Assembly (NCBI GenBank): GCA_003427395.1
Contig: BFEA01000012.1
Coordinates: 4,487,762 to 4,540,812, forward strand
Reading direction: 5' to 3'
Source: Chara braunii
Lineage: Eukaryota; Plantae; Charophyceae
DNA: 53,051 nt
Shown here: positions 4,761 through 53,051 of the stretch, in pieces
How the letters are laid out: each line of letters begins with the position of its first letter
Numbering within the stretch: the stretch's first letter is position 1
The notes under the pieces: generated by a model
Seen by the model: the letters and a program-made list of their open reading frames with translations, nothing else
The model's database searches: none
What the model was told of the DNA's origin: nothing
Program-made: the position numbers and the translations under genes

Positions 4761-5241
4761 AACAATGCGAGGAAGGAGGAAAGGGAAAGCCGAGTGGAAG
4801 AGACGGAACACACGTTGCCGACCCGGAGCAGACAATAAAGAGGGACCCGTTGGTATCAACCAAGAAGGAGAAAAGGAATCTCAACGGAATCTTACAGCAA
4901 ATAGAGAAAAAGGTGGGGGGGGGGAGACCGCCGCGACAGCCACCCAGCGCAGCAAGGAGGAGGAGGAGGAGGGGAAGCACGCATCTCAGAGTAGAACGAC
5001 TGACCTTGAAGACGTCCATTGATACAACTGGAGCAGCACAAAGACGATCAGATGATTAGAATGGCTGCTATGCACGCAAGGACGACAAAGTCGAAAGGAA
5101 GAGGACGGTGTTCAAAATCAACAAGGAAAACACACGCAGGTTGCCCGCCAAAAACACAAACAAAAAGAGGAAGACACTGGCAGCTGACTTGGCGTGACAA
5201 CACAGAGTAGTTGGCTGGCGGCGCGTGTGCAGACATATCGG

Positions 5242-5361
5242 GCCTCGCTCGACTACTCTGGAAATGTGCAAAACGAGAGAGTGAATCTTCCGCTAGAACA
5301 TGGAAAGATACACCACCATGATTTTTGTGTTTTGTGCATTTCAAGAGTAGTGGAGCGAGGC
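5242..5361 (-). mobile_element. Second copy of the 120-bp MITE-like element, inverted
   Basis: Reverse complement of 1486-1605 with scattered substitutions; TIRs retained with one mismatch. Confidence 0.6.
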
Positions 5362-8300
5362 GCATCGCCAGAACCCGCCACTCGTGTTCGTGCCACGGAC
5401 TGACGGAAGGACGGAATTTTTCCCTTTTTTCCTTTTTTCTATCCATGCAACGTAATCCATCCCATCCCACACCCACAGGTGGGTTTGACAGGTTCGTTTG
5501 CCCCTTCCTCCCTCCCTCCCTCCCTCCCTCCGCCCACCCTTCTCCCTGTCCAGATATCGACCACGGTAGGAGACAACCCGTTCACCCCCGTGCATCCAGT
5601 AGGCGCCTCGGGGGGCTGTGGAGGGTGGAGGTGCGACAGGCGCGGAGTCCATGCGGATGCAGCGAAGCTCCCCTAGAGAGAGACTATTATGTTGGTCACG
5701 CACTAGCGCCCAGGGGCCGAGACCGAGTAGGATGTCGGCTGAATGATGATAATGATGAAGTCTTGGGTTCAAGTTCGACGTGAGTTCGAATCGCGAGGGG
5801 GTATATTCCGCCCATCCTGAGTGGTAGAAAAATGAAAAAAAGGAAAAACGCGCAATCAGAATCTTTTACCGTTGTAAGAAGGGGGGGAATCATTATTTAT
5901 CGCTGACATTTCCCGTCTGCCGGCAGGAGGAGAACGATCGCGCTGGCCCGCCGGCGAGAAAGAGATCCCTCTCTTGCCGCCCTTTTTACCTTTTTCGGAC
6001 GGATTTTTGGTGACGATCGATGTATGGCGGGGGACACACGGCCTGGCCGCACTGCTCAAACAAATGTGTGAAATGGCACATGGATTTTCTCATAGAATGT
6101 GGGAAGATACACGCGCCATAGCTTCGGTATTTTTCGGATTCAATTCAGTGAGGCGGTATGGCGAAGGTCCACAGCTGCTCGCAATCAGTTTTTCCAACGA
6201 AAAATGATATTCATATTTTCATATTTTCATATATTCATATTTCATCCCTCCCATGTGCGACGAGGCGGCGTGCAGTGATTTCACGCTGTGACGCTGGACG
6301 CCGCTCACCACGCCAATCGCCGGGTAGCTTTTGCCAGGATGGCCAGCCACGAAGGCAAGCCGACACGACGGACATTTATTTTGGATTTTTTCTCACTGAT
6401 GTACGACGCAACCGGTGGCGGCCGTGAGAGAGAACGAGACGAAGGAAACCGGCTGGCAAAGGCTCTCGCTCCACTACTGTCCACTGTCCAATTTCGGATA
6501 GTGCGACGTCTCTCCACTTGCTGTCTACTGTGCAAGTACAAAATTGGTCGGACCATGGGAAATGGGGCAATGCCTGATCACCCCACATCGCCGCCATGAG
6601 GGGCTGACGGCCTACAGTCTTCACCCGAAAATAAAGAGGCGGGCGTGATATTCAACTTACCCTAAAAAGATCAGATTTTCCTTTTTACTCTCTTTTTCTT
6701 AAATAGACACCCCATAGAATAGAACGCCTGGGCGTTATATGTGAATGTTCCATGGGCAGAGTGCCGTGTAGAGGTAGTAAACATGGGTTTTTTACAGGAT
6801 TTGCTGAATTTTGTTTTCTTATTGAATTTGGGCCCCCCACCAAAGTTGCCATAAATTTACTGAATATAACGGTTGGGTGTCGTCGAGCGCATCGGTCCCG
6901 CAGGGAAACCCTCCCGGGCAATGGAGCTTTTGTCACCGCTCCGGTCGAGTGCGCCAGCCATACCTCTCGTGAACCCCTACGACAGGATAGGGCCACTCAA
7001 GGTATAACTTACCTCCGCCCAAGGGGTTGTCACCACCCTTGAACGGGCGTATACCCATCGAGCTACCGAATCACGTGCGAAAGTTAATCAGTTGCAATAG
7101 CAGAGGTAGCCCCGCTGAGGGTGTTTTCTCGTACATTGTAGCACAGGGGATACGCGTGGTCGCATGCCTCTATCGGACCCATCCGTGAATCGACGCACTG
7201 GAGGGTTGAAGTCCCAAGCGCGACTTATCATCGTCAACTAGGACGTATCCTTCTTACCACGCATTACACCACGCCAAAGACCAATGAATTTTATTACTCA
7301 CACAAACAAAACACTCCTAGTCCCTTCAGTATCCAACCCATAACCTTTCGACACAAAATTGGTTGGGCATCATGCGCAAGACTTAAGATAAAACGGCATG
7401 AACGGAAGGCTTTCTCGTACCGACTAGCCATGTCCTAATATGCGAGCAGTCGCAATGATGATGTACTATGTAGTACTCGTAATTGTGCGACCCTCGATGG
7501 TCTCAAGGGTCGCGTCCGGCACGCATGTGTCGGCTGACACACGCCTTGAGGGATTAATCTCTCGACGCTAAACAACCGCCAAGGCAGTTGAGAGGTCTGC
7601 CCTCTTCTGCACCTTGCGGAGAGTGAGTGGTAAACAAGTTCAGACCTCTTTGTCGCGGCCAGCACTTATGGTCTTCGAGACGCGCTCCATCATCCACGGT
7701 CTGAGAGAAGTCAAGGGGTTTGACTTTGAGGGTTGTCATGGACATCAACGTCCAGCTATAAAAATTTCATAAAGAAAGAGCAAACGAGGATTTTTTTTTT
7801 TTTTCAAAACATATTCGTTCAACTTTTACACACGGTCACTGTAGACCACGCGAATGCTCATAATATATACATTCACACATATGTAAAAGGGTATAAGATA
7901 TGAGACGATCACTTCTCATAATCACGGTGAAACTTCCTTCAAACATATGTATGCGATGGCAGACAGAGTCAAATCCTGAGTTCAAACCACAACCATACTT
8001 GTAATCACATCAAAGATTCGACCAAAAGTTATCGCACTACATGGGTCAACTTCAACCACTTTTTGCGCTCGTACCCCTTGCTTTAGTCAAACCAGCCTCC
8101 CCCTTTGCCCAACCTTCCATAATAAAATACTCAGTATCTTTGTTAAATGACCATTCAATAACGTCTGGGTGAAAACCCAACAAAACAATTCAAACCACAG
8201 GGGCTTAAGCCTTTTAGGTTTATGAGCGAGAGTGAGTTAAAGTTGAGTCGTAAACCGCCGAATCAGCAACCGGCATGTTATCAATGATTACAAAAGATGA

Positions 8301-8559
8301 TCCTCGTGAGATCAAGTTGAGACTAGTCCGATCTTGAATTGAAGTGATTAAAAATGACCTGCAACACAGCGCAGGTCAAACCTCAAGACTAAACTATAAT
8401 TGTATGAAGAATAAACCTCCATACAATGTTTCACTCAAGTCCTTCGGATAGTTATGAGGTTTAAATCTATCTCTAAGCAAGTGTCAAAGGAAAGGGAGAC
8501 CTTTGGTAACATCTCCCCCGTACAGGGTGGATCGTCAGAATATTCGCTATGAGAATATA

Positions 8560-9200
8560 ATCTAACTTTGTTGAAGTAAGAAAAATTCGACAGCACTTCC
8601 TGTAGGAAAAGTACCTTCTCGGAATTTATATTCGTTCGAATGTGAAAACTAAAATTGTCATCAGTTGTAGAGAGTCAAATTTTGTCTGACTTTCTTATTT
8701 AACAAAAAATAAGTTCCTTTAGAGAAGTAGACTTTTCATATTTATACTGAGTCACATCAGAACTCGAAACAATACTTGAGTTTCTGTTAAGTCAAAATTT
8801 AACCAACTCTTTATATTTGTAGAAATTTCGACATCACTCCCTCTAGAGAAGTGTCAATCTAAAATTTATACTAAGTTGATTTTAACTTTCCAAAGCCAAA
8901 TTTTATCGAACTCCCTGAATTAGCAAAAAAATTCATAGAAAAGAAGGTTTTCCATATTTTTACTAAGCCAGATATAAAGCTTATACAAAAGTTGAGTTTT
9001 GAAAAATTAAAATTTAGCTAACTGCTTCGTTTTGTTGAAATTTCATCAGTGTTCCCCGTAGAGAAAGTAGCTTCCCGAAATTTATACAGAACCAAGTAAT
9101 ATAAAGGATCTAATAAAATCCGAGAATGTGAATTAAGTAAAATAAACTTAACTCAAAAAATGGAGGAATTTAACTAACTTCTACAGCTCCAGCACGCGAC
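8560..9200. repeat. Diverged ~120-bp tandem repeat inside element A (ortholog in B at ~33960-34640)
   Basis: Recurring TAGAGAAGTAG...AAATTTATAC motif at about 120-bp period. Confidence 0.6.
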
Positions 9201-9302
9201 GAGCATCTAAAGCAACTACCTATCAAAGTTTAAATTCATACTAATAGAAGTTTATACTCATCCACAATATTTAGTACTCTCCCCACGTCCCAAAATGGAA
9301 CC

Positions 9303-11079
9303 AACATCGAATTTGTGAAAACCTAACAAAATCATAAAACCTAACATTTTTTATAGAATGAAAAAGTAAAAGTCAAACTGTTATTTTTGACACATAAAAT
9401 ATTTTAACTGTTTCCCGATAAAAAAGGCAAAAAAAAAGGCAAAAAGTCTAGTGATTCTCAAAATGTGCAAGAAAATCATTTCCAACAAAGAGCATGTTAT
9501 AAAACTATAAGTCGTTCTCTGTAGACTGACAAAAAACATAACTCAAATAAGATAATATTTAAGGACTTCAAAGGGCACTCGAAAGATGTTAGAAAATACA
9601 GTTTCAGTATATACTCATTTGTAGAACTATAAGTCGTTTTCAACAGTTTGGTAAAAATCAAACTTTGCGAAAACTAGTTTATAGAACTATAAATTAATAT
9701 AAATTCATTTTTAAGTTAACTGTAAAACCCTTGTCCAAAAAATATATGTTATGTAAAAGAATAATTCAAGCAAGTTTTGTTTGGAAGACATCCTCAAATT
9801 TTTAGTTAACCACGATTTAAAAAAAAAATATATTTATATATATAGAGAGAGAGTTGCCAGGCCGAACGTACGGAGGACCCTAAGCTGACCCCCGAACGTT
9901 CGGACGTTGGGGACCATCGAAGGGGTTCAGATTTCGCAAAAAAATATTTTAGTACCTAAAAATTATTTTTTTTTTTCTGATTTTTTTTTGTGTGTTCTAT
10001 GTTATGTAAGCTACCTGTCTATCAATTTTGAAGTCATTCTGTGGAGCCAAACAATAATGAAAAATCGGCAAAGATGGTGGTGTCAAAACTTCATTTCCCA
10101 CTTACTAATTTGTTTTTTTTTCTCTTTTCACTTTTTGTTTTCCCTTTTATTTCGGGGCCTGAAAAAAATTATTATTTTTTCAAACTTTATTTCTAGGTTC
10201 ACTGTTATGTAAGATACATATGTATAAAATTTCATGGCATTTGACAAAGCCNNNNNNNNNNNNNNNNNNNNNNNNNNNNNNNNNNNNNNNNNNNNNNNNN
10301 NNNNNNNNNNNNNNNNNNNNNNNNNNNNNNNNNNNNNNNNNNNNNNNNNNNNNNNNNNNNNNNNNNNNNNNNNNNNNNNNNNNNNNNNNNNNNNNNNNNN
10401 NNNNNNNNNNNNNNNNNNNNNNNNNNNNNNNNNNNNNNNNNNNNNNNNNNNNNNNNNNNNNNNNNNNNNNNNNNNNNNNNNNNNNNNNNNNNNNNNNNNN
10501 NNNNNNNNNNNNNNNNNNNNNNNNNNNNNNNNNNNNNNNNNNNNNNCCGAACGCGTCGAGAGGGGCTCCCAAACGTTCGGGCGTTCGGGTTTGGGCGTTC
10601 GGCCCGTCTCGAACACCGAAAACCCTGTACATATATATATATATATATGTGTGACGATATATATATATATATAATAAAAAATAATATATTCGTCCATGTA
10701 GGAGAGGACATATGAGAGCGAATGTATTCGTGAACGAGAATATGTGTGCGTCTTTGGAAAACCCCCGAGTAGGTTCGTCGTGCTACATACCTTCTAGAAT
10801 TATAAATATTATTTTTTTAATAAAGAAAAAAATGGGGTATTTCAGTTTCTGAACAAACGGTGCTTTGCGAGGTAGTGATTTTTTGTAAAAAAACTTGTTT
10901 CTCTCATCACCACTTCCAGTGGTTCGAAAAAAGTAATTTTGTGTTCCTTTTTTGTTGTTAATTTTTTTCACATATAATTTTATTCATGTAGGAGGCCTTA
11001 ACAATGTACTATCAGGAACTTTAAAAAATTTCGTGCAAACCTAACAATTTTTTTTATAGGTTTTCACGAATCCTATGTT
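9303..11079. mobile_element. Non-autonomous TIR element with 4-bp TSD (AACC) nested in A
   Basis: TIRs AACATCGAATTTGTGAAAACCTA and TAGGTTTTCACGAATCCTATGTT; AACC at 9299-9302 and 11080-11083; absent from the orthologous site in B (~33870). Confidence 0.75.
9845..10627. mobile_element. Non-autonomous DNA element with CCGAACG subterminal repeats in a (TA)n tract; spans gap 10252-10546
   Basis: Starts GAGAG/GAGTTGCCAGG, ends CCGAAAACCCTG; CCGAAC/GTTCGG motifs cluster at both ends; similar motifs in 34762-35112. Confidence 0.5.
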
Positions 11080-11149
11080 AACCTTGTCAACAATAGTTCA
11101 TATTCTCTCAATAATATATTTATTTTTACCCAACTTATATAAAGTGTAA

Positions 11150-11905
11150 GTTGGACCATTCATTGAATATACACAAAGACAAAGCAATATTAACTTTCTC
11201 TTCTTTGGGCATGTGACAAGATCATTCAACTTAGAATCAACGCCAAGTCGCCGTGAACAGTTCAAGTAGCCAAGTTATATATAATTTTTTGCTCTTAATC
11301 TTTTAAGGTAGCATAGGACCGAACCGTTCAGCTTAGAAACAAAGTGCAAGCTGCCCCTTCTTACCATCAATTAATATTATTAATCAATACTATTTTTATT
11401 ATGATAAGCTATAGTCAGACCATTCAACTTAAAAACAAAGTCTGACTAGCCTGTTCATAAACTATACTAGTGATAGAGTATAAAAAAAATTATTTATTAA
11501 TTTTGTTATGTGCGTGACTCCAAACCAAACCATTCAACTTAGAAATAAAGTTTGATCCTTCACCCGATCTCCCTAAGAATAAACAAAAAATATTTTGAGT
11601 CATTTAACTTAGAAACAAAACTCAAACCTTTTTTTTCATAAACAATAAAGAAACATAAGGAGACTGAGTTATTCAACGTAGAAACAAAACTCAGTCTCGC
11701 TTAGAAAATCCCAAAGTAAATCAAGGCGACCAAGCTATTCAACTTAGGAACAAAGATTGGACCCTGAAAATGCAGTCGTTTGCAACCCTCGCAAGTCAGA
11801 GCAACCAAACCATCCAACTTAGGAACAAAGTTCGTTCTTCCAAGCAGTCAAAATAAAACATGGCACTGAGTCTTTCAACTTAGAAACAAAGTTCAAACTT
11901 TGGTT
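11150..11905. repeat. Array of ~9-10 constant-loop hairpin repeats (CATTCAACTTAGAAACAAA) in element A
   Basis: Motif recurs every ~60-110 bp; several units are flanked by unit-specific inverted repeats, e.g. TAGTCAGAC/GTCTGACTA (11412-11448) and GAGACTGAGTT/AACTCAGTCTC (11660-11698). Confidence 0.85.
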
Positions 11906-27940: not shown

Positions 27941-29433
27941 TGTCAGCTTGAATACCCTTACAAGGGTACCTGCCCTTGTTTTTACAAGTGACAGAGATGA
28001 GACTTGGATTGAAGATTGGAACCTTTGAATACGTGTGGTCGGTTTTCCGATGGTCAACGGTGTGGTTAAATAGTACGACAAAGCAGAGAGTGTGTGGACG
28101 CGCAAATTCCAGGTGCGAGTGAATTCTTTTTGATATGTCGTAAACCGACATTTGTTTTGCTGGAAATGTTTACTTTGATAAAATTAGGATTAAACGATCT
28201 CTTCGTTTAGTTGGTATGTCTGTTTGTGAGGTGTATGCATGCGAGGAAACGAAATTGCAGTAGCCAGCGTTAGGTTTGAGTACTGGTGCCACGGTTAAAA
28301 GTAATTACCTTGGCTTTTATTTAATGCGATGTTGGAGCCTGCGTAGTACGTAGTGCAATAGGGCGCCTCATTGTGTTTTGCCCGCCAATAAGAAATCTTC
28401 CGCAGTTCTGGTGACGGCGTGCATAAACAGATTCCAGCATAGACAAGGGTCGAGTTTTCGTCATTAAAATAGTGAAAGTGCAGTTCTGAAAAGGTGACCA
28501 CGTGTGGGGGTCAGGGCCGACAATGGGGCGACCCTTGTGTGGAAAAAAGGTGCGTGCGATAAACGGGTTGAGGTAGTAAAGGTACGACTTTGGAAGGTGG
28601 CTTCTTGTGTGAGCCTGGAGCAACGATGGTGTGACTTTGTGTGATAGGTGGTATGTGTGATGATTATGGGTAAAACCAGGCCTCCGTGCAGCAAAAGTGG
28701 GAGCACGACGACTATAGCTCAACCGGCAGGCCAAAGGTTTGGACTGGGGGAGTCTTATAATGAAGACAAGTTCCCTTTATACTTTACGACCTTGGACTTT
28801 CGACTTGTTGACATGGGGATCGAGGTCAACAGGCGCCGTCGAATGAGCGATGGAGCAGCTTGAAGAGAACCAAGGGGTTGAAGGTCTGGCGGGACTATCC
28901 CTCTTGTTTTGATGTTGACCCCGACCTTTGGGTCAAATTGGATGGACCCACGAGATGCGTACAGTCTCTCCCTCTCTCCTCCGTTGTCCCGACCTTTTTT
29001 ATTTAAAAGTTTCATTTTTGTGACCGAATCAATACCAGTACCGGTGTCGGTTCTGGAACCGGTGATGAAACTAACAGGACCGACTCAATTGCTACACTGC
29101 ACCTGAACTATCAAAATACAGACCTAAGTTTGGATTTCACTATAAGCAAATGAGTAAACGAGTCTCAGTCCTTCGGGACATCCGTTAAAATTTGAGCGAT
29201 ATAGAGGAGATAAGCATTGCCCTTGTGCAAGGGTGGCGTGCCTGAATCAGAGCAGGATCCATATTTTGGTCACCACGATTGCCTCGCTCCCCTCCTTGAT
29301 CCTGGTCGGCTCCAAATGTACTCGAGTGTTGGAATAGACTACGTATGTAGTTAGGGGCATTATTGAGACGAGTAGGCCCGATGATATCGGGGCGATGTTG
29401 CTTACTATGAGTACGTGAGGTACTCTGGTACGT
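27941..29433 (+). mobile_element. Copy D (more diverged) of the TGTC-terminus family, interrupted by copy B
   Basis: Starts TGTCAGCTTGAATACCCTTACAAGGGTACC; contains a tRNA-like remnant (~28780-28840) and a U6 copy; probably resumes at 36781. Confidence 0.65.
29168..29268 (+). pseudogene. U6: U6 snRNA-derived copy (diverged) in element D
   Basis: GTCCTTCGGGACATCCGTTAAAATTTGAGCGATATAGAGGAGATAAGCATTGCCCTTGTGCAAGG...CCATATTTTT; ACAGAGA box mutated; TATAAG at about -27. Confidence 0.85.
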
Positions 29434-29935
29434 TGTCGGTGTGAATACCCTTATAAGGGTATCCTCCTTGTTTTTTGCAAGAAACAAAAAATAAGTTTGG
29501 TTTAAAATTTGAGTACACCGCGCAAGTCGAGGTTGTGTTTCAATTACGCTGACTAAGTGGCTGACTAGGAATAGAGAGTGTGTGAGCGCGCAGACTTAAG
29601 ACGCGCGAGATCTCTCTTTTCTGATGATTGTGAAGCCAGCATGGTTACCAACCAAAATGTTTGTTTTTTATTTAAATTAGGATTGCAAGATTTCATCTTT
29701 TTATTGGTACGTTTAACCGCGGCATGTGCGCTCGTACAGAGGACGACATTGACGAAAATGCGACTTTGAGTAAAGTCAGAGTATGCGAAGGAATAGGTGT
29801 GCGGAAGGCGTGGAGCTTGGCGGCCGTGGATTTAGTGGATAAGTCGAGGTATGGCTTTGATACGTTTCAATAGGCCCTCGCGCCTTATGATACCCAGTTA
29901 TATAGTTTGCCGCTAGTGGTAGGCTTAGCCTTGGG

Positions 29936-30007
29936 CCTAACATTATTGGTTATGGTGTCGGACTTTCATCTGGGAGATTCAGGGATTGAGGCCAATAGGC
30001 GACGACG
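29936..30007 (+). pseudogene. tRNA-Glu-like remnant in element B
   Basis: TGGTTATGGTGTCGGACTTTCATCTGGGAGATTCAGGGATTGA, orthologous to the remnants in A, C (~38358-38425) and F. Confidence 0.5.
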
Positions 30008-30237
30008 CAGGATATAACGGATCAGCGTGAAGGGACCGAGGGGTTGAGGAGCCTTCGAGGTGATCCCGCATGGTTTTGGCTGACCTACAGGGCCGAGGTT
30101 GCCCTTCATTTTTCATCCGGCTATTTGCCTATACTGTGGGGATTATTAATTTTTATTATATTAATGTTATTTGTTGTTTATCTTCTTTAAAGCAAGGCGT
30201 GGTGCCGTGTTTTAGGGGCGCCCAACCTGATCATCCA

Positions 30238-30309
30238 CGATCTGCTGTGAGAGATTTGAGTGTGAGCATGCTGCTGGGGCCCAAAAGATGGTGGACTATT
30301 GCCCGGGGC
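30238..30309 (+). pseudogene. Decayed 28S rRNA fragment (sense) in B
   Basis: GATCTGCTGTGAGAGATTTGAGTGTGAGCATGCTGCTGGGGCCCAAAAGATGGTGGACTAT versus LSU GATCTTCTGTGAAGGGTTCGAGTGTGAGCATGCCTGTCGGGACCCGAAAGATGGTGAACTAT. Confidence 0.8.
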
Positions 30310-30349
30310 ACTACAGGGAGACCGCAGCAAACGCTGTGGCAAGCTGCAG

Positions 30350-30490
30350 GTCACATGGAACCCTTCTCCACATCGGTCTTCGAAGTTCTCAGTTGAGTGT
30401 CTACTACTACCACCGAGATTTGCGTCGAGACCCGCTTCGCCAAAATGCGCGTTACAGGTTTCAAGTTGCGGCAGATCGCACCCGCGACTC
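30350..30490 (-). pseudogene. Decayed 28S rRNA fragment (opposite orientation) in B
   Basis: TCACATGGAACCCTTCTCCACATCGGTCTTCGAAGTTCTCAGTTGAGTGTCTACTACTACCACCGAGATTTGC matches the reverse complement of the LSU GCAGATCTTGGTGGTAGTAGCAAATATTCAA region. Confidence 0.8.
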
Positions 30491-30695
30491 CGTGAATCGC
30501 CTATATGTGTGTGAGCATGTCTAGCGTGGCTGGCCCAGAACACTCAGGCAAGGGGGTCTGAGACTGGTATCGGTGATTGTACCAGTCTTCCCAGCCCAAT
30601 TGGTATGCCCATGGGCAGTAAAAAACAGAAACGGAGCTTAGACCAGGAGGTTGCCTAGCCTCCAGGAAGCGCCATGGGGCATGGGCCCACGTGAA

Positions 30696-30803
30696 GTTCT
30701 TCGGGACATCCGTTAAAATTGGAACGATACAGAAAAGGTTAGCGTGGTCCCTGCGCAAGAATGACACGCATAAATTGAGATAAGCAGACACCTCCTTTTT
30801 TTT
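30696..30803 (+). pseudogene. U6: U6 snRNA-derived copy in element B
   Basis: GTTCTTCGGGACATCCGTTAAAATTGGAACGATACAGAAAAGGTTAGCGTGGTCCCTGCGCAAGAATGACACGCATAAATTGAGA followed by a T-run; ACAGAGA is changed to ACAGAAA. Confidence 0.92.
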
Positions 30804-33024
30804 GTTATTTTCTTCTACTCGTTATTTTTCTTCCTACGAGGCCATTCCTGTCGGATCGATCTCGCTATCTGCATTATGTGAACAAGAGGGAGAGTTGACC
30901 TCAACAAACACGAAGGGAAAAATAAGCAGTGTGGGAGTGAAAATTGTTTGGCTTACCCGTTTCCTAACGATAACGAGCGAAGGAGGAGTTGAAATGGGGG
31001 TTCGGGGGTATGGCAGACTGAATGGCGGAGTCGGAAGTGGGGTTAAGAAAAATGACGAAGAGGTATATTGGAAAAGGAGTGTGTGGAGCGAGTCGAATGT
31101 GACGAAGAGTAGAATGAGAAGGAGTTGGAGTTTACCTGATCTTCGATAAAATTGAGTTGGTAAAGAATCGATTTCTGGTGTTTTGACACATGGCGGGTGG
31201 AACAATAGTGTTAGATTCGACATAGAGGCGATTGTCTGGCCGTTGGGGGTAATATAGCCTGTGCGAGGAGTTTGGTCATGTACCTGGCCCCGTTCTAGCA
31301 GAGGGTTCATTCGTACCGTTGAATGCTAGAGAAGGAGGGAATACTTACCGCTGAAAGCCAACGACAAGAGACGGGGTCGTTATTGCGTGGTATTGTAATC
31401 ACCGCTTGGGTGCTTGTCAAAACCGGGATCACTACTTTGTTTATACGTTGGACTGTGATCGCGCCGCTAATAGTAATCGAGCAACTGCTCACTATCTGTT
31501 CCACACGTAACCGCCCATCCAGATTGCAGTTTTATCGCCCATCTCGTGCCCCCCACCGAGTTATGCGCTCACGAGGATGACCGCTATTGCGGTTGTACTT
31601 GACCTCGTAGTCACTATTGGAGCTGCCTGGGTTCTCACTCCTCCGTTGATTTCGATTGCATATAGGTGGGTTGGCCAAGGACACTGAGGCAATAAGGGAT
31701 AGTAGGCGGAGAGGGAGAGGGAGAGGGAGTATCTACCCTGACACGAGAATTTGGCTTGCTTTTTAAGTTGTCGAACTTTTCGGCGTCCAGGTAGCACTCC
31801 TTGCATCCCATGTTTTTCAGACATTCCCGTGGTATGCTGGTTAGAGTGGCGTGACTATCTGGTTTCCTACCATTGCTTCTTGTGGTCGTTTTGATACACC
31901 CACTACCTGGTTCATCGTACCAGCAACCGTTTGTTTGTCCCGACGACGAGACCATGCAAGTTTGTGTGTGGATGTTGTGCGTCATAGGACTGTGAATGAC
32001 TCGTTAAATCTGTTACCTGTTTTCGCAGCTTCTTTACTACTGCGACAATCGTCGCAACTGTGGGGTTGTTACTAGGAGTATATCCCAACCCTTGGAAGGG
32101 GGTGCACTTTGGGATAAGAAGTCGTTCTTGGTCTACCACCGAGTTGCTGGAAGACTTAGCTTGCTGAGACAAACACTGCGGTTGCAATCTGCTAAGGTGT
32201 TGATGATGGATGCCCCGCTGTTGTTACTGACAAGCTCAAAGTACATGTTGTTGCGCACGATGCTGCTTAGCCAAGTCACGCCAAGTTTCGTCCGAGCTCC
32301 AAGTAGAACACGGGGGAGGGACGTGCACTATTTGAACATGACCTTTCTGGACTGCGTGACATCGGTTTGGTTAGAGCTAGGAACATAACAATTTGGAGGA
32401 GCGCGATCAGGGTTTTTTCAAGGGAGTCTCTACTGAGAATTGAAAGGTCACCAGAGAGTTAATGGTTGAAGGTTTGACTTCAGTTGACCGAGCTACTCTG
32501 CACTCTGACAGTCATTGTAGGGCCCTTAGGCGTCTGAAGGATTCAAGGCCCTCTTACGCGAGTCTTAGTGCACCTTCTTTGTATTAGAGAAACTGAAACC
32601 TTTTCCTTCTACCCTTCTTATTCTAAGTCTGGTTTGTTGATTCTGAGAGAAAGACGACAAGAGGGATTGAAACCCGTAATCCGTGCCAAGGACTCTGTGG
32701 GAGGTTGTCCCACGGGAGCTCTGCCGGAACCTAGGCGAGGTTCTGGAGGCAGGGAACTGAGTGGTAATCATCATCCCCTTCTATAACCAGTTAAAACCCT
32801 TACCTGTATATCTTTCTATCGTTTGACTGAGTATACTGCATGCATCACTATTGAATATATGTTTGACTTTCTGAACTTAAATCAAAGTTAAGTAAAGGAA
32901 TGCACTAACATGCGCAGTTTGAGTTTCATTTTTGTTGCTTGACTGAATTCAGATTGAAAATGAGTTGTGAATTTGGCGAAGGCGGGAAGGAGGTGGTTTT
33001 CCTTGCGATTGTTTGGGTTAACTA

Positions 33025-33800
33025 GAGACTGGGCTTAGTTTCTAAGTTGAATGACCCGGTGCTTTGTTTATTTTGACTGCTCTAAGGACTAAACTTTGTT
33101 CTAAGTTGGATGATTTGCTTGCTCTGACTTGTGAGGATTGCCTGCGAATGCATTTTCATGGACCAAGTTTTGTTTATAAGTTGAATGGTTTGGTCGCCTT
33201 GATTTATTTTTGGGTTTTCTGAGTGGGACCGAACTTTGTTTCTAAGTTGAATGATTGAGTCTCCCTATATTTCTCTATTGGTTATGAAAAATGAAGTTTG
33301 AGTTTTGTTCCTAAGTTGGATGACTCAATTTTTTTTATTTTTATTTTGAGAGAATCAGGCGAAAGAGCATACTTAGTTTTTAAGTTGAATGGTTTAGTCT
33401 TGAGTAATGCACATGTTGGAACCAAGGAATAATTCTACATATACTCTACTATTATTTTACTTATGAACATGCTAGTCAGACTTTGTTTCTAAGTTGAATG
33501 GTCCGACTATAACTTATCATCATGAAAAAAGTATTAATTAAGAATATTAATTGATGGTAAGATGGGATAGGCTAAACTTTGTCTCTAAGTTGAATGATTC
33601 AGTCCTATGCTACTTTAAAGGACTAAGAGCAAAAAAATATAAACAACTTGATTGCCTAAACAGTTCAGGGCGACTAGACTTCATTTTTAAGTTGAATGAC
33701 CTAGTTATATGCCCAAATAAGTGAAAAGTAGTAGTGCTTTGTGTTTGTGTATATTCAATGCCCAAGCTAGACTTTGTTTCTAAGTTGAATGGTCTAGCTT
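33025..33800. repeat. Array of ~10 constant-loop hairpins (TTTGTTTCTAAGTTGAATG) in element B
   Basis: Example: AAGCTAGAC-TTTGTTTCTAAGTTGAATG-GTCTAGCTT at 33764-33800; units colinear with the array in A. Confidence 0.85.
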
Positions 33801-34761
33801 TACGTCTTATGTAAGCTGGGTATACGGGATAAATCACTGAGAGATTATGAACTATTGTTGACAAGGTTCAACCTTGGGACTGGTGAAAGTATGGACTTAC
33901 ATGTGGCTGAGTGTGAGCTCTACTTCGTCTGAATTTCAGTTTGATAGGTAGTTGCTTTAGTTGTTCACCATGTGCTATAGCTATAGGAGTTAGTTCAATT
34001 CCTACATTTTCTGAGATGACTTTTTTTTACTTAGTTCAATTCTCGCATTTTCTAGGATCATTTATTTCACTTGGCGTTGTATAAATTTGGAAAAATTACT
34101 TTCAATGGAAGACGCTGCCGAAATTTATAAAAAAATAAAAAGTTTATCAAATTTTGGTATTTCAATGTTCAAGTTTTGTCTAAGTTTTATATATGGCTTA
34201 GTAAAAATATGAATTTTTTTTTTTTTCTACGAGAAGTGTTGCCTGAATGTTTGCTAAATCAAGGAGTTAGAGAAAATTTGACTTTGGGCAGTCAGAATCA
34301 TTTCAGGATCCATACTTCGTTTTGTATAAATTTTGGAAATCTAGTTTCTCTACGGGAAGCGTTGCTAAAATTTCTACAAATCTAAGGAGTTAGTTCAATT
34401 TTATCTTGGCATGAAATCAAGTCTTACTTTGATTTTTTATCCAACTTAGTATAAATTTGGGAAGTCTACTTCTTTAAGAGAGATGTTGCCCAAATTTTTA
34501 CCAATTCAAGGTGTTAGATAAAATTTGACTTTCTACAGTTAAAGGTCATTTCAATTTTCATATTCAGACGAGTATAAATTCTCAGAAGACACTTTTCCTA
34601 CGGGAAGCGCTATCGAAATTTTCTTAGTTTATATGAGTTAGGTTATATTATGATAGAAAATATTTTGACGATCTACTATGTATAAAGGAAATGTTGTCAA
34701 AGTCTACCTTTCCCTGAGCACTTGCTTAGAGATAAACTTATACTTACTATGAGAAAATTTT

Positions 34762-35112
34762 GAGTTGTGTAGCACACCGAACATGTTCGGAGCTTTTTCG
34801 AACGTTCAAATATGTTCAAGTGTTCGACCGAACACTTCCCGAACGTGTTCGACCGAACATATTAATATATATATATATATATATATATTGGTTTTTGATT
34901 TTTAATTCGAGTTTGGTTACGAATTTGAGCATACCTCCCAGAAAATAGTTGTTTGTATTATTATTTTATACAACATATATTGTTTTCAGATTTGTTTTAT
35001 ATCTTTTTTTTTTAAATATATTTTTATGCTCGCATTCGGAGGGTTTTGGTGCTCGTTCGCGTTCGGTCGCGAACGTTCGGGTTCGGTCACCAAACCCGAA
35101 CACGATGCTATG
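34762..35112. mobile_element. Short element with CCGAAC repeats and an imperfect 8-bp TSD, nested in B
   Basis: AAAATTTT|GAGTTG...GATGCTATG|CAAATTTT; absent at the orthologous position in A (~8440). Confidence 0.65.
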
Positions 35113-35654
35113 CAAATTTTGAGTAAGAACGTGATATGGGGACTTGTTCTCCATACACTTATAGTCTAGCTTTGGACATTCGCTTATCTTGTGTTACAGG
35201 TCCTCTTTGATCGATTCGATTCAGGACTGAACTATATTCAACTTGATCCCACGAGGATCATCTTCTGTTATCACTGATAATAGGTCGGTTGCCGATTCAT
35301 CAGTTTACGACTTAACTCGAATTCACTCTCGCCACTTAGTCTAAAGACTTTAGCCCCTATGGTTTGAATTGTTTCGTTGGGGTTTTCACCCGGACTTTAT
35401 TGAATGACCATTTAATAAAGATACATAGTATTTTATTATGAAAGGTTGAACAAAGGTTGGGGTTTGTCTGGTTGAAGCAAGGAGTGTGAGCGCAGAGAGT
35501 GTTTGAAGTTGACCCTCTCACTTTTTGGTTGAATCTCTGATGTGATTGCAGGTATGTTTGTGGTTCAGACTCTGGATTTGACTGTCTGCGATCACTGCAC
35601 ATATATACATGGTTGAAGGGAGTCTCACTATGATTGTGAGAAGTGATCGTCTCG

Positions 35655-35670
35655 TATNTATANANNTATN

Positions 35671-35737
<67 letters not shown>

Positions 35738-35738
35738 N
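35655..35738. repeat. (TA)n microsatellite
   Basis: Directly visible. Confidence 0.95.
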
Positions 35739-36830
35739 TCTCAAGTGTCTGCGTGACCTACTGCGACCGTGCATAAGGGTTGGGCTGATTTTACGTTTGA
35801 GAGGAAAGGTAGACTCCCTTTCACTTTTGTTTATTAGATTTATTATAGTTGGACGTTGAAGTCTGTGACACCGTCAAAGTCAAACCCCTTGACTTCTCTC
35901 CAGACCCTAAATGATGAAACTTGTCTCCATGACCACAAGGGTAGACTGCCACAACATGCAGAAACCTGTGTACCGTAACCACTCTGCGCAGGGTGTAGAA
36001 GAAGGTGTGGTGATCAACCGCCTTGGCGGTTGTTTGTTGTCTAGCGTCGAGAGATTAACCCCTCAAGACGTGTGTAAGCCGACACTTGAGTGTCGAAAGT
36101 GACCCTGGAGACCTCTGAGGGCCACGTGATTATGGGTACTACATAGTACACTATCACTGCGACTGCTTGCGTATTCTTGCATGGTTAGTCGATATGAGAA
36201 AACCCTGCGTCCGTGTGGTTTAATATTAAGTTTCGCACGCGACGCCGAACTTACGTTCGTGTCAAAAGGTTAATGGTTGGATACGAAAGGGACTATGAGT
36301 GTTTGTTTTGTGTGAGTGACCTGATTTTTTTGTGTGGTGTAATGCATGGTAAGAAGGGTGCGTTCTAGTCGACCGACGTCGAGTCGAGCTTGGGACTTCA
36401 GCCCCACAGTGAGTCGATTCACATACGAGTCCAATAAAGGCGTGGGACTGCACGTATTCCCCCCGTTACACTGTACGAGAAACGCCCTCGGCGAGACCAC
36501 CTCTGCGATTGCAACTAATTAACCTTCGTATGTGGTTCAGTAGCTCGGCGGGGATACGCCCACCCAAGGGATGGTGACAGCTCCTGCAGGAAGAATAAAG
36601 TTGTACCTCGAGTGAACCTATCCTGTCATAGGGGTTCGCTAGGGGTATAATTGGCGCACTCAGCCAAAGCGGCAACGAAAGCTTCATTGCACCTCGATGA
36701 AGGATAAAGACCTTCACAAAATCCTGTGTGATGAGGCCGAGAGGGTCCCCCTTTAAGTTGCGAGATCGATGAGCTCGATAACGTTATCAAGTGGTACAGG
36801 GTGGAGAGCACGAAGAAGAAGAAATGATGG

Positions 36831-46125: not shown

Positions 46126-47190
46126 CTCTCTCTCTCTCACACACACACATAGCCTGCCAGTAGCTTCTTCCCCGTGCGTGGCTCTTCCCGTGTGCACTGA
46201 TTGGTTCCTTCCCGGTGCAGCCCTCGTGCGCTTCGGGTGCATGACCTTACCTGTTACCTGTTCGCTCCTGCGTTCCAAACGCTCCCTCCGCCCGGAAACC
46301 AGTCCGCGAGGGATCAACACACTCCCGTGCGCCAGCTCGTGCTTCCTTCCCGTGCGCAGGTGAGAGTCCCCCGAGAATGAGCCCTCTTGGGCTTGTAAAG
46401 TTTGCTGGTCCCACTGTACCAGCTCCCAGCAGCCAGCTCTCCCCCGCCGTCGGCCGATCAGTGTCGGGAACTTTGCAGCGCCCTGGTACCGGGCCTATGC
46501 CCGAGCCTGTTTGGGCCCCGGAAAGGTCTTTGTCGAGGAGAGCCTTTTTGTCGAGAACCGGACCTTTTGCAGCGCCCCGGTACCGGACCTATCTCGGCCT
46601 TGGTGGTCCCCACTCATAAGTGGTACCAGCCCCCCTTGTGAAAGTCACGCAGGCCCGCCCAAAACTCTAGGTCGTGAGGTCCATTTCTGAGCCTTAGGCC
46701 CGTACCCTTCTCCTCTTAGTGTCGAGGCCCCTGCGTAGGCCATATCCCCACCACTTGTTCACGCAGGGTGTTCTTGAGAATTCGGTCACTCGAGGCAACT
46801 TCGGGCACTGCCGCCGCTTAAGATGTCCGTAGCCTCACGATAAACGCCCGACGCCTCCATTCCCTCGACTATTCCGCCGACCTTTAGTATCATTCCGACC
46901 TTTCGAGGCCGGGCCCCCTTGTCCGACCCCTCGGCAGTTGTCCGTTGTGGTAGCCTCTTTGCGTTCGTTTGTAGCTTATGTCTTAGCCTCTCTCCGCGAA
47001 GATACCACTGTTCAACGCTCAAGCCCTGCTCGAACTGAACGTCGTAGCCCGACCACTCGTTCCGTCAACCTGTCGCGGCATTTTCCCATGGCNGGTGAGC
47101 CCCTGCCAGGTAGAAACCAACAAATGCGAACCTCGTTGTGCGCCCTTGTAAAGGAAGNAAAGGGCGGCGTANGGCTGGAGCCGCCCGACA

Positions 47191-47494: not shown

Positions 47495-48742
47495 CTAAGT
47501 CGGCAGGATCAGTTTGATAAATGTTAAAGTACCTCCTTCTTCGAACATCGGACCTCCGAACTTCCGAGTTTTACCTCCCCCGTTTACGAACATCCTTCTC
47601 CTCCTTGCACCCATTCTCCACCCAACCAGTAAGGCTTGAAAGAGTATAGGAAAGACATCGCATGACAGATCGCAGGACAGGCTTGTACGGACCCACAAGG
47701 AGCTCGCGCCACCATAAAGATCAAACGTAATGAGACGATCAGCCATGCTNAGTAAGATGCCGACATTAAAGCTGCAGTCGTAGCACCNACAACGGAAAGT
47801 ACGAGCATAAGTTGACGTNAGGATGATCAGTAAGAGAAAAAGGAGGCGCAAGTCTTCATTCCAGCCTCGCACTCTTATCCCAAGCTGAAATTTTGCGACC
47901 CNATTTCCAGTCTTAATCGAATCATTATCGTCAATAACGGATTTCTTCACTTGAAACCCTTCCNTGAGTTCTGACAGTTCCTTAAATTCTCTCGACGTGC
48001 TTTTAAGATGGTCTGCATCCTCAATAAACTTAACTTCCACAATGGTCTTTCCTCCGCCTTCTTGGTCAGATGAAAGTCGAATCTCATTGTCTTGTCCTTC
48101 CAAGAGGTTCCCGTCTAATTNTCCTTCAACACTCANCGTCGTGCATTGATTCATTATGAAATCTTCAATATTTTTCATAGTTACCAGCTTTTGGCTCTTA
48201 AAACTATACCCGACATCGTTTTCGGACGTATCGATGGTCTCCAANAGTTGGGCAAGATCATAGTCGACATCGGAGTCGAGGGTCTCAAACAGTTGTGCAA
48301 GCTCATAGCCGTCGTCCGGCTCGACAGTCTCCAACAGTNGGGTAAGNCNATAGTCGATACCCGGTTCGGAGGCCTCAAAGAGTTGAGCTAAGTCATAATC
48401 GTCAACATGTTCGATGGTCCCAAATAGTTGCACCAGCTCATAGCTGACGTCCGACTCGACGGTCTCAAAAGGATGAGCCAGCTTGTAGCCGACATCTGGG
48501 CCAACAGACTCAAATGGTTGGGCAAGCTCACAAACCATGTCCAAATCGGGGGTCTCAAACAGTTGAACCAACTCATAGCTAAGATCTGGCTTGATGGTCT
48601 CAGAAAGTTGAGCCAGATCATAGCTGATATCCGGCTCTACACACTTAAACGCTGGGGCAAACTCATAGCTTGTGTCTGAGTCCTCTGCCCTCTTGTTTTG
48701 AGTATCGCCAATTTTTTTCAAGCCTCTGCATTCTTCAATCAT
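47495..48742 (-). CDS. Retroelement internal ORF with ~10 acidic 15-aa repeats (consensus approx. EPDVSYELAQLFETV), unknown function
   Basis: 415-codon open frame; 45-bp repeat units at ~48230-48680; no protease, RT or integrase motifs seen; contains ambiguous bases and a non-ATG start. Confidence 0.5.
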   Translation of the reverse strand: MIEECRGLKKIGDTQNKRAEDSDTSYEFAPAFKCVEPDISYDLAQLSETIKPDLSYELVQLFETPDLDMVCELAQPFESVGPDVGYKLAHPFETVESDVSYELVQLFGTIEHVDDYDLAQLFEASEPGIDYXLTXLLETVEPDDGYELAQLFETLDSDVDYDLAQXLETIDTSENDVGYSFKSQKLVTMKNIEDFIMNQCTTXSVEGXLDGNLLEGQDNEIRLSSDQEGGGKTIVEVKFIEDADHLKSTSREFKELSELXEGFQVKKSVIDDNDSIKTGNXVAKFQLGIRVRGWNEDLRLLFLLLIIXTSTYARTFRCXCYDCSFNVGILXSMADRLITFDLYGGASSLWVRTSLSCDLSCDVFPILFQALLVGWRMGARRRRMFVNGGGKTRKFGGPMFEEGGTLTFIKLILPT

Positions 48743-49268
48743 TGGTATCTCTTCCTGTGTCGTGGTTCGATCTACCCACGTTTCCTAAACAACCTTCGGC
48801 CCTTCGCCCCTCGGCGAGACTTTAATATCAAGGTTAGTATTATCGGCTCCATTTTCTTCTGCTTCCTCACTCATTTTCTCANCACATACCGGAGCTGCAT
48901 CAGAATCTTTCTGGCAACTCTCGAACCGAATACTCGAAACCCCAACCGTCAGACTATCATTCGGGTCTGGGTCCTCCTCAAACTGGACACTAGATACCCA
49001 GAACTCTCCCTACTCTGACTCTTCCGCTGTCCTTACTACATTGCTAGTACCCATCTCGGTGGAAGTTCGACAGCGTATATCTTCCTCCTCATTCTCATTT
49101 GTATTCCGGTCCTCCTCAAACGGAGTCAAACCTGATACTCGACACCCAGATTTCTCCTTGAATTTTCTGAATCACCTCCTGGGTTGTTCTTGTTTTAACG
49201 TCAGTATTCATCTTCGTAGAAGGTCCGCATGATATATCTTTCTTGTCATTCGCACATTCGATCTTTCT

Positions 49269-51328: not shown

Positions 51329-52729
51329 TGTCGACCAGTAGAAGGGGTCTGCCGTCACGCCAACCAAACCCTATACCTCGCGCCGTGTCTGTCACCCACA
51401 GGAGGGTCGATCGAGGCTCCTGTGACCTGCAAGAAATCAGTATCCCCAAAATACGCTGATACCGCAATATAAGGCAAGCAACTGTTGACGGTGAAACAAA
51501 TTGTAGAAATGATCGAAATGCGTGTTTTGATTTAATTCAGAATAGTATGAAAGTTCGCACTGCGATCAGGCTCTGGGTCTCGTTCATAGTACGAGTCTGT
51601 AAAATACGTTTGAGTCCCAACGGAACCCGGCCCCGGCAGAGGCGATACCTTGGTTCGCCCGGGTGCGCGACTAGGACCTGTCCCGGGTCTAGATCCAGTC
51701 TGGTCTGGCCTGATCCGGCCGGTCTGATCCCGTCTAGTCTGTCCTGTGTCCGGTCTGGTCTGATCTGATCTGATCTGGTCGGACCCGGTCTGATACGTCC
51801 TGGTTGGGTCTGATCTGGTCTGTTGCGATGCTCTCTGGTCTGGTCTGAACTGGTCTGATCTGATCTGGTCTGGGTCTGGTCGGATTCTGATCTGGTTCTA
51901 ATCTGGTCTGGTCTGGATCTGGTCCAGTCTGTTCGGATCTGGTCTACTTTGGCCTGGTGGTCCGGTAGGGGGGGCTTTCGAGTCCGACTGCGGCTCGGCG
52001 TGCACATCCTTTGTTCATCCGCTCTTGAATCTCCTCACTTTGGCATTCCCAACACGGAGCAGAAACCACATTGCTTCAACATCCGTTGACACCTCTCTAG
52101 TCACCTTGCAGAGTTGAATTGCAATTAAGCTCAACAGAGCTTCTTTCCCTGCCGATTCTCGCAAGCCCCTTCATTTAGCTGTTGTTATTGCGGGAAAGAC
52201 AGTGGAAACCTCGTCGGCTCGTTTATGCGCGTCACTAATCAGGTGACGGGGCATTAGCCCTTCCCCTTGAATGTGGTAGGTAGGGACAACAGTTGTGGCT
52301 TCCAGAGACGGTAGATGTAATAGTAGGAATCTTGTTTGTCCAATCATGCGTGTCACCAGTTAGACGACGGGGCGTTGGCTTCTTCGCCGTCGGTTCCTCC
52401 CTGCAAGATTCCCCGGCTGGAACTTCGCGTGATGATAGGACAATAGAAATCTCGTTAATCCAATCGTACGCGCCGCTAATTAGATGACAAAGCCTTAGAC
52501 TTCTTTTCCCGCGTATTCTTCCAGATCCATTCCCTCGGCTGTGGGATTGTAGACACGAACAGTAGAAACCTCACCCCTCCAATCATAGGTGTCACTAATT
52601 AGATGATGTGGCATTGGCGATCTCATGAGAGTCATAGTTACTCCTGTCGTTTACCCGCGCTGAGTTGAATCTCCTCACTTTGGTCTGTTGAGCGTCGGGG
52701 AGAATCTCATTACATCCACACCCGTCAAG

Positions 52730-52819
<90 letters not shown>

Positions 52820-53051
52820 GTGCACGCGTGCGTGCTGTCCGATTCGCCCTCGCCGCTCGTTCCTCTTACTCGGCAGCTCTTCTGCTGTTTGCGCAGTAGT
52901 GCCTTTCCACACAACAGCTTCTCCCGCGCAGAACTTCACGCAACTTCGTTCCGACTCTGTGGGCAGATCCACTCTTACCTCGCCGCAACTTCTCTCTCTC
53001 CTCGCGTGCACTCCCCGTGCGTTCACACCAGCTTGGTTATGATTGAATCTG
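51329..53051 (-). repeat. 5' LTR (partial, continues beyond the window), including the 28S-derived array at ~52025-52720
   Basis: Aligns with 42388 onwards; adjacent to the PBS. Confidence 0.9.

Follow-up and report, generated by a model that had tools for sequence, protein, structure and literature searches.

The DNA considered here, called the window below, is a 53-kb stretch (53,051 nucleotides) of the Chara braunii genome that is eukaryotic in character, rich in repeats, and without recognisable genes. Self-BLAST and alignments resolve one repeat family within it, present as copies A, B, C, D, and F and as fragments X and Y (Table 1), whose members have the left end, the order of internal blocks, and the right end in common. 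A preliminary description had proposed a non-coding mobile family with shared ends and an ordered cassette of host RNA gene copies, namely transfer RNA (tRNA), 28S ribosomal RNA (rRNA), and U6 small nuclear RNA. The family, its ends, and its block order are borne out, with the coordinates of B reproduced to within 1 nt. Identity between copies is 72-78% over alignable parts and 74-77% at the left end, where Kimura distances are 0.28-0.34 and transitions outnumber transversions by about 3:1. Copy C is recognisable up to 42384, where another repeat interrupts it.

Table 1. The repeat family in the window: its copies, and the parts of copy B with their counterparts (window coordinates)
Feature	Position	Strand	Basis or remark
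Copy A, inverted, 10.1 kb	6882-17005	-	self-BLAST; weak 28S piece at 15699-15770, decayed U6 trace
Hairpin array in A	11209-11904	-	same 19-nt loop as in B, 8-bp stems
Copy D, 1.5-kb deletion derivative	19693-21179	+	left end, conserved block, and right end; flanks ACCGAC / ACCGGC
Copy F, diverged left end and U6 (29162-29267)	27942-~29330	+	ends just before the start of B
Left flanking hexamer of B, TACGTT (putative target-site duplication)	29429-29434		pairs with AACGTT at 5/6
Copy B, full element, GTCGG...CTCGAT	29435-36779	+	7,345 bp; self-BLAST and end alignments
Left-end palindrome GAATACCCTTATAAGGGTATCC	29443-29464	+	in 5/5 left ends
Conserved block, earlier taken for a tRNA-Glu remnant	29898-29990	+	71-80% identity among A, B, and C; also in D
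Sense 28S-derived piece of B	30235-30310	+	30235-30271 nearly identical to true 28S; read evidence
Antisense 28S-derived piece of B, shortened	30340-30440	-	homology to C 38956-39283 (Rfam large-subunit rRNA, LSU)
Full-length U6 copy of B, ending in a T-run	30696-30800	+	Rfam RF00026, 72.5 bits; ACAGAGA changed to ACAGAAA
Copy-specific middle of B	31008-32561		no BLAST match in A or C
Array of 10 hairpins in B	33021-33805	+	8-bp variable stems, conserved 19-nt loop TTTGTTTCTAAGTTGAATG
Nested inverted-repeat element, 348 bp	34766-35113		11-bp duplication AAATTTTGAGT, perfect; A lacks the element at this site
Conserved right end of B	35119-36779	+	72% identity to A 8438-6918; alignment of five right ends
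Right flanking hexamer of B, AACGTT (putative target-site duplication)	36780-36785		pairs with TACGTT
Fragment X, inverted right end	36832-37135	-	alignment
Fragment Y, right end	37192-37475	+	alignment
Copy C, truncated	37855-42384	+	LSU at 38956-39283 (minus strand), U6 at 39459-39558
Hairpin array in C	41854-42400		same 19-nt loop as in B, 8-bp stems

Across the whole window, none of the 177 open reading frames (ORFs) of at least 75 aa reaches the Pfam cut-off, and 111 shorter ORFs (45-74 aa) taken from within A, B, and C have no Pfam match either (0/288 in total). Because the ORFs of their interiors give no Pfam hit, the copies are non-autonomous, and together with their defined ends this upholds the description of a non-coding mobile family.

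The left terminus reads GTCGGTG(C/T)GAATACCCTTA(C/T)AAGGGTATCC in four of the five copies, the version in F having diverged, and includes the palindrome GAATACCCTTAYAAGGGTATCC shared across copies. The right terminus lies about 100 nt outward of the conserved ...CAACGAAAGCTYCAT block. Five right ends were compared, those of B, A, D, and Y and that of L001, a family copy in an unrelated metagenome data set. All reach ...CGATGCGCTCGAC or a near variant and diverge beyond it, and the right-terminal motif GATG.GCTCGA occurs three times in the window against 0.10 expected. When the left GTCGGTGCGAATACC is compared with the reverse complement of the right GTCGAGCGCATCGG, about 9 of 15 positions match with one gap (GTCG.GCG.AT); with the flanking ACGTT included in the terminus, the inverted match becomes 9/9 plus five more positions.

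Outside these termini stand hexamers that form direct repeats and vary from copy to copy (B, D, and A). The pair of D agrees at 5/6 positions, and that of A, AACGTT / AACCGTT, lies beyond a 7-nt insertion. In D, the hexamers match at 5/6 as a direct repeat versus 2/6 as an inverted repeat, and they depart from the usual CACGTT of the family identically on both sides. This fits a duplication better than inverted terminal sequence (p ~0.005 for this pair alone, with the register set by B). A scan of end offsets and duplication lengths returned trivial optima of 2-3 nt and 0.67 overall for the 6-nt register, because A carries the insertion; a duplication of fixed length is found at 6 bp in three copies, each imperfect. 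On these three imperfect pairs, we read the flanks as putative 6-bp target duplications at preferentially palindromic sites, (A/C)ACGTT. Such a duplication with a palindromic target preference is unusual among the common plant superfamilies.

Two other candidate boundaries were discarded. A single ACGT common to B and X was dropped after the five-way alignment of right ends, and a 10-bp repeat CGTTATATTC flanking A, considered as a duplication, proved to be part of a scrap of inverted right terminus beside that copy. This 14-nt scrap, ACGTTTGTCGAGCG, lies in the left flank of A (~17030-17050), 15 nt outside its left end, and is followed by TTATATTC, the same sequence that lies beyond the right end of A. 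It may be a remnant of another copy or a footprint.

The abundance of the family was gauged from DNA contigs of four sequencing runs placed on D at a likeness of at least 80%. Summed contig depth does not equal copy number and is read here only as showing that the ends are very many and the interior far fewer: it reaches 371,000-626,000 where the left terminus lies and 665,000-1,580,000 close to the right end, whereas the interior has 520-840 and the unique flank 5.8-16.7. At 19693, the left end of D, 170-223 contigs per run diverge into unrelated sequence, and agreement among these flanks is just 0.37, save for the shared CACGTT. A metagenome scan with a right-end 19-mer returned two loci, one of which (L002) is a 20-mer match only. 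The other, L001, is a true copy, 90% identical to D; the same scan with the left palindrome gave no matches. By contrast with the ends, the middle of B (31008-32561) is single-copy in the genome, with a DNA contig depth of 9.5-16 versus ~9 for unique flank. Deep ends over a shallow interior, together with D, are what a DNA transposon with numerous internal-deletion copies would show. Abundant ends, a deletion derivative, and a flanking repeat of fixed length thus fit a cut-and-paste DNA transposon better than a 5′-truncating retroelement.

Inside the left part of the element, 0.8-1.3 kb from its end, lies a cassette of RNA-gene-derived sequence. Its U6 copy, claimed beforehand to end in a T-run, is confirmed by Rfam (RF00026) at gathering level in B (72.5 bits), C (64 bits), and F (62.4 bits). 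All three cover model positions 1-105 with the T-run at the end; in B the copy lies ~1.26 kb from the left end. The claim of an antisense 28S piece stands firmly for C (39132-39283, 78 bits, extending to 38956) and weakly for A (15699-15770, 29-35 bits, under the gathering score). Rfam LSU has no match in B even at E<=10, and there the antisense piece is recognised by homology alone, B 30232-30436 aligning with C 38910-39095 by BLAST. Likewise, the sense 28S piece reported in B is seen in RNA and DNA reads alone and not by Rfam LSU: thousands of RNA reads match 30235-30271 partly, their loose ends continuing as another sequence, and summed DNA depth at the piece is ~3,500 times the unique depth, as rDNA would give. 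Homologous sense pieces occur in C and A by alignment. The U6 and 28S sequences are presumably of green-plant type. Rfam finds no 5S rRNA in the window.

In a four-way alignment of the element heads, the two 28S pieces (sense and antisense) and the U6 copy fall at homologous positions: both 28S pieces in A, B, and C, and U6 in B, C, and F. A retains a heavily decayed U6 trace at the homologous place, B lacks ~100 nt of the antisense 28S retained in A and C, F has U6 with no alignable 28S, and D has neither 28S nor U6. The antisense 28S and U6 are separated by ~170 nt of unrelated sequence, and a TATAAG lies 28 nt upstream of the U6 of F. In the AAGGA stretch of U6, a derived G>A is common to B and C but missing from F. 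This change and the differences in the U6 boxes point to one capture followed by divergence. A had been described as carrying rRNA without U6, and the cargo as modular; given the U6 trace in A, such differences are better explained by decay and deletion of a single ancestral cassette.

The cassette shows signs of decay. In place of ACAGAGA, the U6 box has ACAGAAA in B, ACAAAGA in C, and ATAGAGG in F, and the Rfam scores of the U6 copies reach only 62-72 bits. U6 identity is 72% between B and C and 66-70% against F, the sense 28S pieces are 57-70% identical, and the antisense pieces 43-64%, with 29-58% in the spacers. The RNA-derived pieces thus do not surpass the left end of the element in conservation. 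The absence of the 28S and U6 pieces from D shows that movement does not require them.

Transcription was assessed with three poly(A) RNA runs (X5-X7), of which 6-13% each was read, mapped on copy B. The runs yielded 363, 30,673, and 1,116 reads, all lying only partly on the stretch and placed at the 28S and U6 look-alike spots, the great majority at 30235-30271. Apart from these partial matches from true rRNA and U6, no poly(A) reads were found on B in this portion of the three runs. With U6 boxes mutated differently from copy to copy, this leaves the proposed functional cargo without support, and the reading of three or four RNA classes with a function gives way to a likelier one, that of inert captured cargo within a DNA transposon that is old and very abundant. 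Reads matching part of the U6 copy (30699-30738) carry ~50 nt of heterogeneous upstream sequence (agreement 0.43-0.46) with an ATAAG-like start. Some U6-bearing loci, possibly other copies of the family, appear to be present in poly(A) RNA or as DNA carry-over. Separately, a 45-nt high-copy segment of B (32713-32757) has a summed DNA depth of ~14,000, a few RNA reads, and loose ends on both sides.

Taken together, we favour, with a probability of roughly 0.6, a non-autonomous, high-copy cut-and-paste family whose ancestor captured 28S fragments and U6 that are now decaying passengers. Under this model, copies would move by means of a transposase made elsewhere, as their short imperfect inverted ends and 6-bp duplication suggest. 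A common ancestor would have taken up two 28S rDNA fragments, one sense and one antisense, and a whole U6 gene copy, probably in a single event and at the DNA level, and the captured pieces would by now be inert and decaying. We read the element as a non-autonomous cut-and-paste DNA transposon of unassigned superfamily.

Several observations weigh against this interpretation. The terminal inverted repeat is weak, at ~9/15 under the 6-bp duplication model, and the proposed duplication is drawn from three copies, all of them imperfect through a mismatch or an indel. The window shows no transposase partner, and the superfamily is unassigned. The right-end fragments X and Y and the rise in depth toward the right could also reflect 5′-truncated retro-copies. 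Strictly neutral passengers would not be expected to outlast their surroundings, as the blocks derived from non-coding RNA (ncRNA) do (57-72% for B vs C, against 29-58% in the spacers), and in F identity is 66-70% for U6 but 57% for the left end. The gap between blocks and spacers may be explained by unalignable, indel-rich spacers, leaving a small opening for constraint. Finally, the RNA data are poly(A)-selected, cover 6-13% of the runs, and concern copy B alone, so that transcripts of RNA polymerase III (Pol III) or small RNAs would escape detection.

Among the alternatives, the origin of the cassette as a chimeric retro-copy is the most probable, even if it is unlikely. Template switching by a reverse transcriptase between 28S rRNA and U6 RNA would have produced a chimera that landed in the ancestral element and then spread with it. 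The three U6 copies correspond exactly to model 1-105, from the first base of the transcript to the T-run, and chimeras in which a full-length U6 is joined to other RNA sequences by the enzyme of long interspersed nuclear elements (LINEs) are well documented, at least in the parts of PMC6789731, PMC11838501, and PMC2104539 drawn on here. That a second, unrelated repeat (described below) likewise holds a 28S piece hints at a general process dispersing rRNA fragments. The U6 copy here is likewise full-length, but no LINE part, poly(A) tail, or target duplication is recognised around the cassette, features that decay could mask. Unlike the U6/LINE chimeras, moreover, the cassette has one antisense partner, a spacer, and a DNA-type element around it: simple template jumping yields head-to-tail sense fusions, whereas here one of the 28S pieces runs antisense and stands ~170 nt away from U6, across unrelated sequence. 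The TATA-like box at -28 of the U6 of F would also be unexpected in an RNA copy. Mixed orientation, the intervening spacer, and this TATAAG fit capture of genomic DNA, as in Pack-type elements. DNA capture seems more likely than an RNA-derived chimera.

It is very unlikely that the family as a whole is a short interspersed nuclear element (SINE) or LINE-dependent retroelement whose right-end fragments are 5′-truncated copies. Besides the isolated right ends X and Y and the steady climb in depth toward the right terminus, this view can invoke an A-rich consensus in the loose ends beyond the break of D at 20462. That break, however, is inside the element and not at its end, and D is an internal deletion with both ends kept. 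The left terminus is of an abundance similar to that of the right (371,000 vs 665,000 in run X1), which 5′ truncation does not predict. There is no poly(A) or simple repeat at the right terminus of B, A, Y, D, or L001, and the flanking hexamers are fixed at length 6. The SINE reading in particular was rejected on the length of 7-10 kb, the position of U6 ~1.26 kb from the left end, and the missing tail at 5/5 right termini. SINE28- and SINEU-type elements, as far as the portions of PMC10946416 and PMC4494074 consulted here describe them, do resemble the family in carrying 28S- or small nuclear RNA-derived sequence. They are nonetheless short, with a 5′ RNA-derived head that drives transcription and LINE-type tails, unlike the 7-10 kb element of C. 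braunii.

We are as doubtful of the idea that maintained RNA-gene mimic blocks, the tRNA-like block, and the hairpin array described below make up a new kind of non-coding transposon, a Dada-like relative in the plant lineage. If this were true, the mimic blocks would function as decoys or as modules for Pol III or chromatin boundaries, and such a role would account for their survival beyond the spacers. Dada DNA transposons, in the account accessible from PMC8869645, make a 6-7-bp target duplication and are associated with U6 and tRNA genes; the family described here is like them only in that duplication length. Dada elements sit inside small RNA genes, unlike the present element, whose flanks are heterogeneous and whose U6 is internal and uninterrupted. 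No Dada-type insertion in an RNA gene was found among the flanks of the 170-223 contigs per run, given their agreement of 0.37, and the flanks in the window are not RNA genes.

A slighter chance still attaches to the more general proposal that the ncRNA-derived blocks are kept for a service, be it as a Pol III promoter or boundary, a silencing decoy, or an antisense regulator. The 28S, U6, and tRNA-like blocks do align at 57-80% next to spacers at 29-58%, U6 in the distant copy F is better kept than the left end of that copy, and the block at 29898-29990 is present even in the 1.5-kb derivative D. The core motifs of U6 have, however, been destroyed independently in each copy, A is nearly without U6, and ~100 nt of the antisense 28S are gone from B. 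No reads other than cross-matches from the true RNAs were seen on B in the poly(A) runs, and D, with the cleanest flanking repeat, has neither 28S nor U6, so that mobility does not depend on them. Least probable of all is an immobile family spread by segmental duplication in a heterochromatic heap of repeats: all copies do lie within 40 kb among satellites and other repeats and no gene, but the ends recur in hundreds of contigs with unrelated flanks, the window copies differ in flanks and orientation, a copy exists in an unrelated data set, and a deletion derivative has a flanking repeat of its own. The contig flanks by themselves go most of the way to refuting this view.

The favoured reading, a DNA transposon with captured host sequence, finds its closest parallel in Pack-TYPE or Pack-MULE-like elements. 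To judge from the part of PMC8903248 available, these are similar in non-autonomy, defined ends, and a flanking duplication, and similar again in multi-locus host fragments of mixed orientation that spread with the element (PMC8903248). Unlike the exons of Pack-TYPE elements, the cargo here is ncRNA gene material (28S twice and U6), and the inverted ends are very short. Captured protein-coding DNA, a Pack-TYPE feature, was not found, the 288 ORFs having no Pfam domain. Mutator-like elements have a duplication of 8-11 bp, unlike the ~6 bp here. Helitrons begin with 5′-TC, end with 3′-CTRR and a 3′ hairpin, insert at A/T, and make no duplication; that reading was rejected because the ends are GTCGG...CTCGAC and a flanking hexamer repeat is present. 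The end sequences also led us to reject readings as a long terminal repeat (LTR) or CACTA element.

Elements with rDNA-derived modules are many, and most of these modules are probably of no benefit to the element, according to the excerpts used of PMC10946416. Cassandra, a terminal-repeat retrotransposon in miniature (TRIM) treated in the same excerpts, is alike in being non-autonomous and in carrying a copy of a housekeeping RNA gene; its LTRs contain a transcribed 5S promoter (PMC10946416). Unlike Cassandra, the present element has neither terminal direct repeats nor 5S, and its RNA pieces are internal and decayed. The Cassandra/TRIM reading was rejected on the lack of direct left-right similarity by self-BLAST and of 5S in Rfam. 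A keyword search of the literature turned up no account of an element like this one, a result that speaks only weakly for novelty.

If the favoured reading holds, the family is an ordinary DNA transposon with captured host DNA, albeit with an unusual cargo of ribosomal and spliceosomal RNA genes. It would allow scattered U6 and 28S pseudogenes in the genome to be traced to one transposon family, which is useful for annotation, and it would provide an example of rRNA fragment dispersal. Of more specialist interest are the apparent 6-bp duplication with palindromic preference and a hairpin array with compensatory stem changes.

This hairpin array, whose existence had been noted beforehand, is present in A, B, and C, with stems that vary between units while keeping their complementarity. 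Over the 21 units of these copies, 78% of stem cells are paired, compared with 68% in shuffles (0/500 as high), and double-sided stem changes number 39 versus 17 expected; slid controls gave 22-51%. At 77% identity between A and B over 1.4 kb, the array is the best-conserved long block of the element. No poly(A) reads fall on it in copy B in the three runs. The covarying array is the most unusual feature of the element.

The block at 29898-29990 is real and conserved, but its earlier identification as a tRNA-Glu remnant is not sustained. ARAGORN predicts no tRNA in the window and none in the four-copy consensus of the block, even at an 80% threshold, and Rfam tRNA has no match at E<=10. Relaxed ARAGORN searches returned noise, with 48 matches at the 80% threshold and 183 at 70%, none of them at the block. 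It bears at most a loose resemblance to the anticodon region of tRNA-Glu, and the block is not counted as an RNA class. The 120-bp repeats reported from the right part of the element are not confirmed: they show up only in weak BLAST self-matches at 67-74%, and Tandem Repeats Finder does not detect them. The 348-bp element nested in B is presumably a Mutator-like miniature element, to go by the length of its duplication.

Other repeats share the window with the family. A 127-bp satellite occupies 18892-19279 and 20486-21085, with a summed DNA depth of 131,000-573,000 per bin. The second tract is expanded inside the right end of D, and the related copy L001 is without it, which suggests that the satellite either arose by expansion of the right subterminal part of the element or spread into it.

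A second, younger repeat family is found at 42388-44347, 92-93% identical to 51329-53050, with a third, older piece at 45962-46147. It carries an antisense LSU piece (Rfam model 2135-2330) adjoining a (TC)n/(GA)n run; the window has three copies of this piece, of which that at 45962-46147 scores 81.7 bits. As this second repeat is unrelated to the first, rRNA fragments in repeats are not peculiar to the element family, and their presence in repeats looks general in the genome of C. braunii.

Inverted repeats of 124 bp at 1483-1606 and 5241-5364, 91% identical and starting with TGCGCCTCGCTCCACTAC, bracket 3.9 kb and probably belong to another inverted-repeat transposon; a flanking duplication was not evident. 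Lastly, an open frame of 429 codons on the minus strand (47498-48784), without a Pfam match, encodes repeats of ~15 residues (D.Y[ED]LAQLFET-like) interspersed with N-derived X residues, and may be a tandem DNA repeat that stays open by chance.

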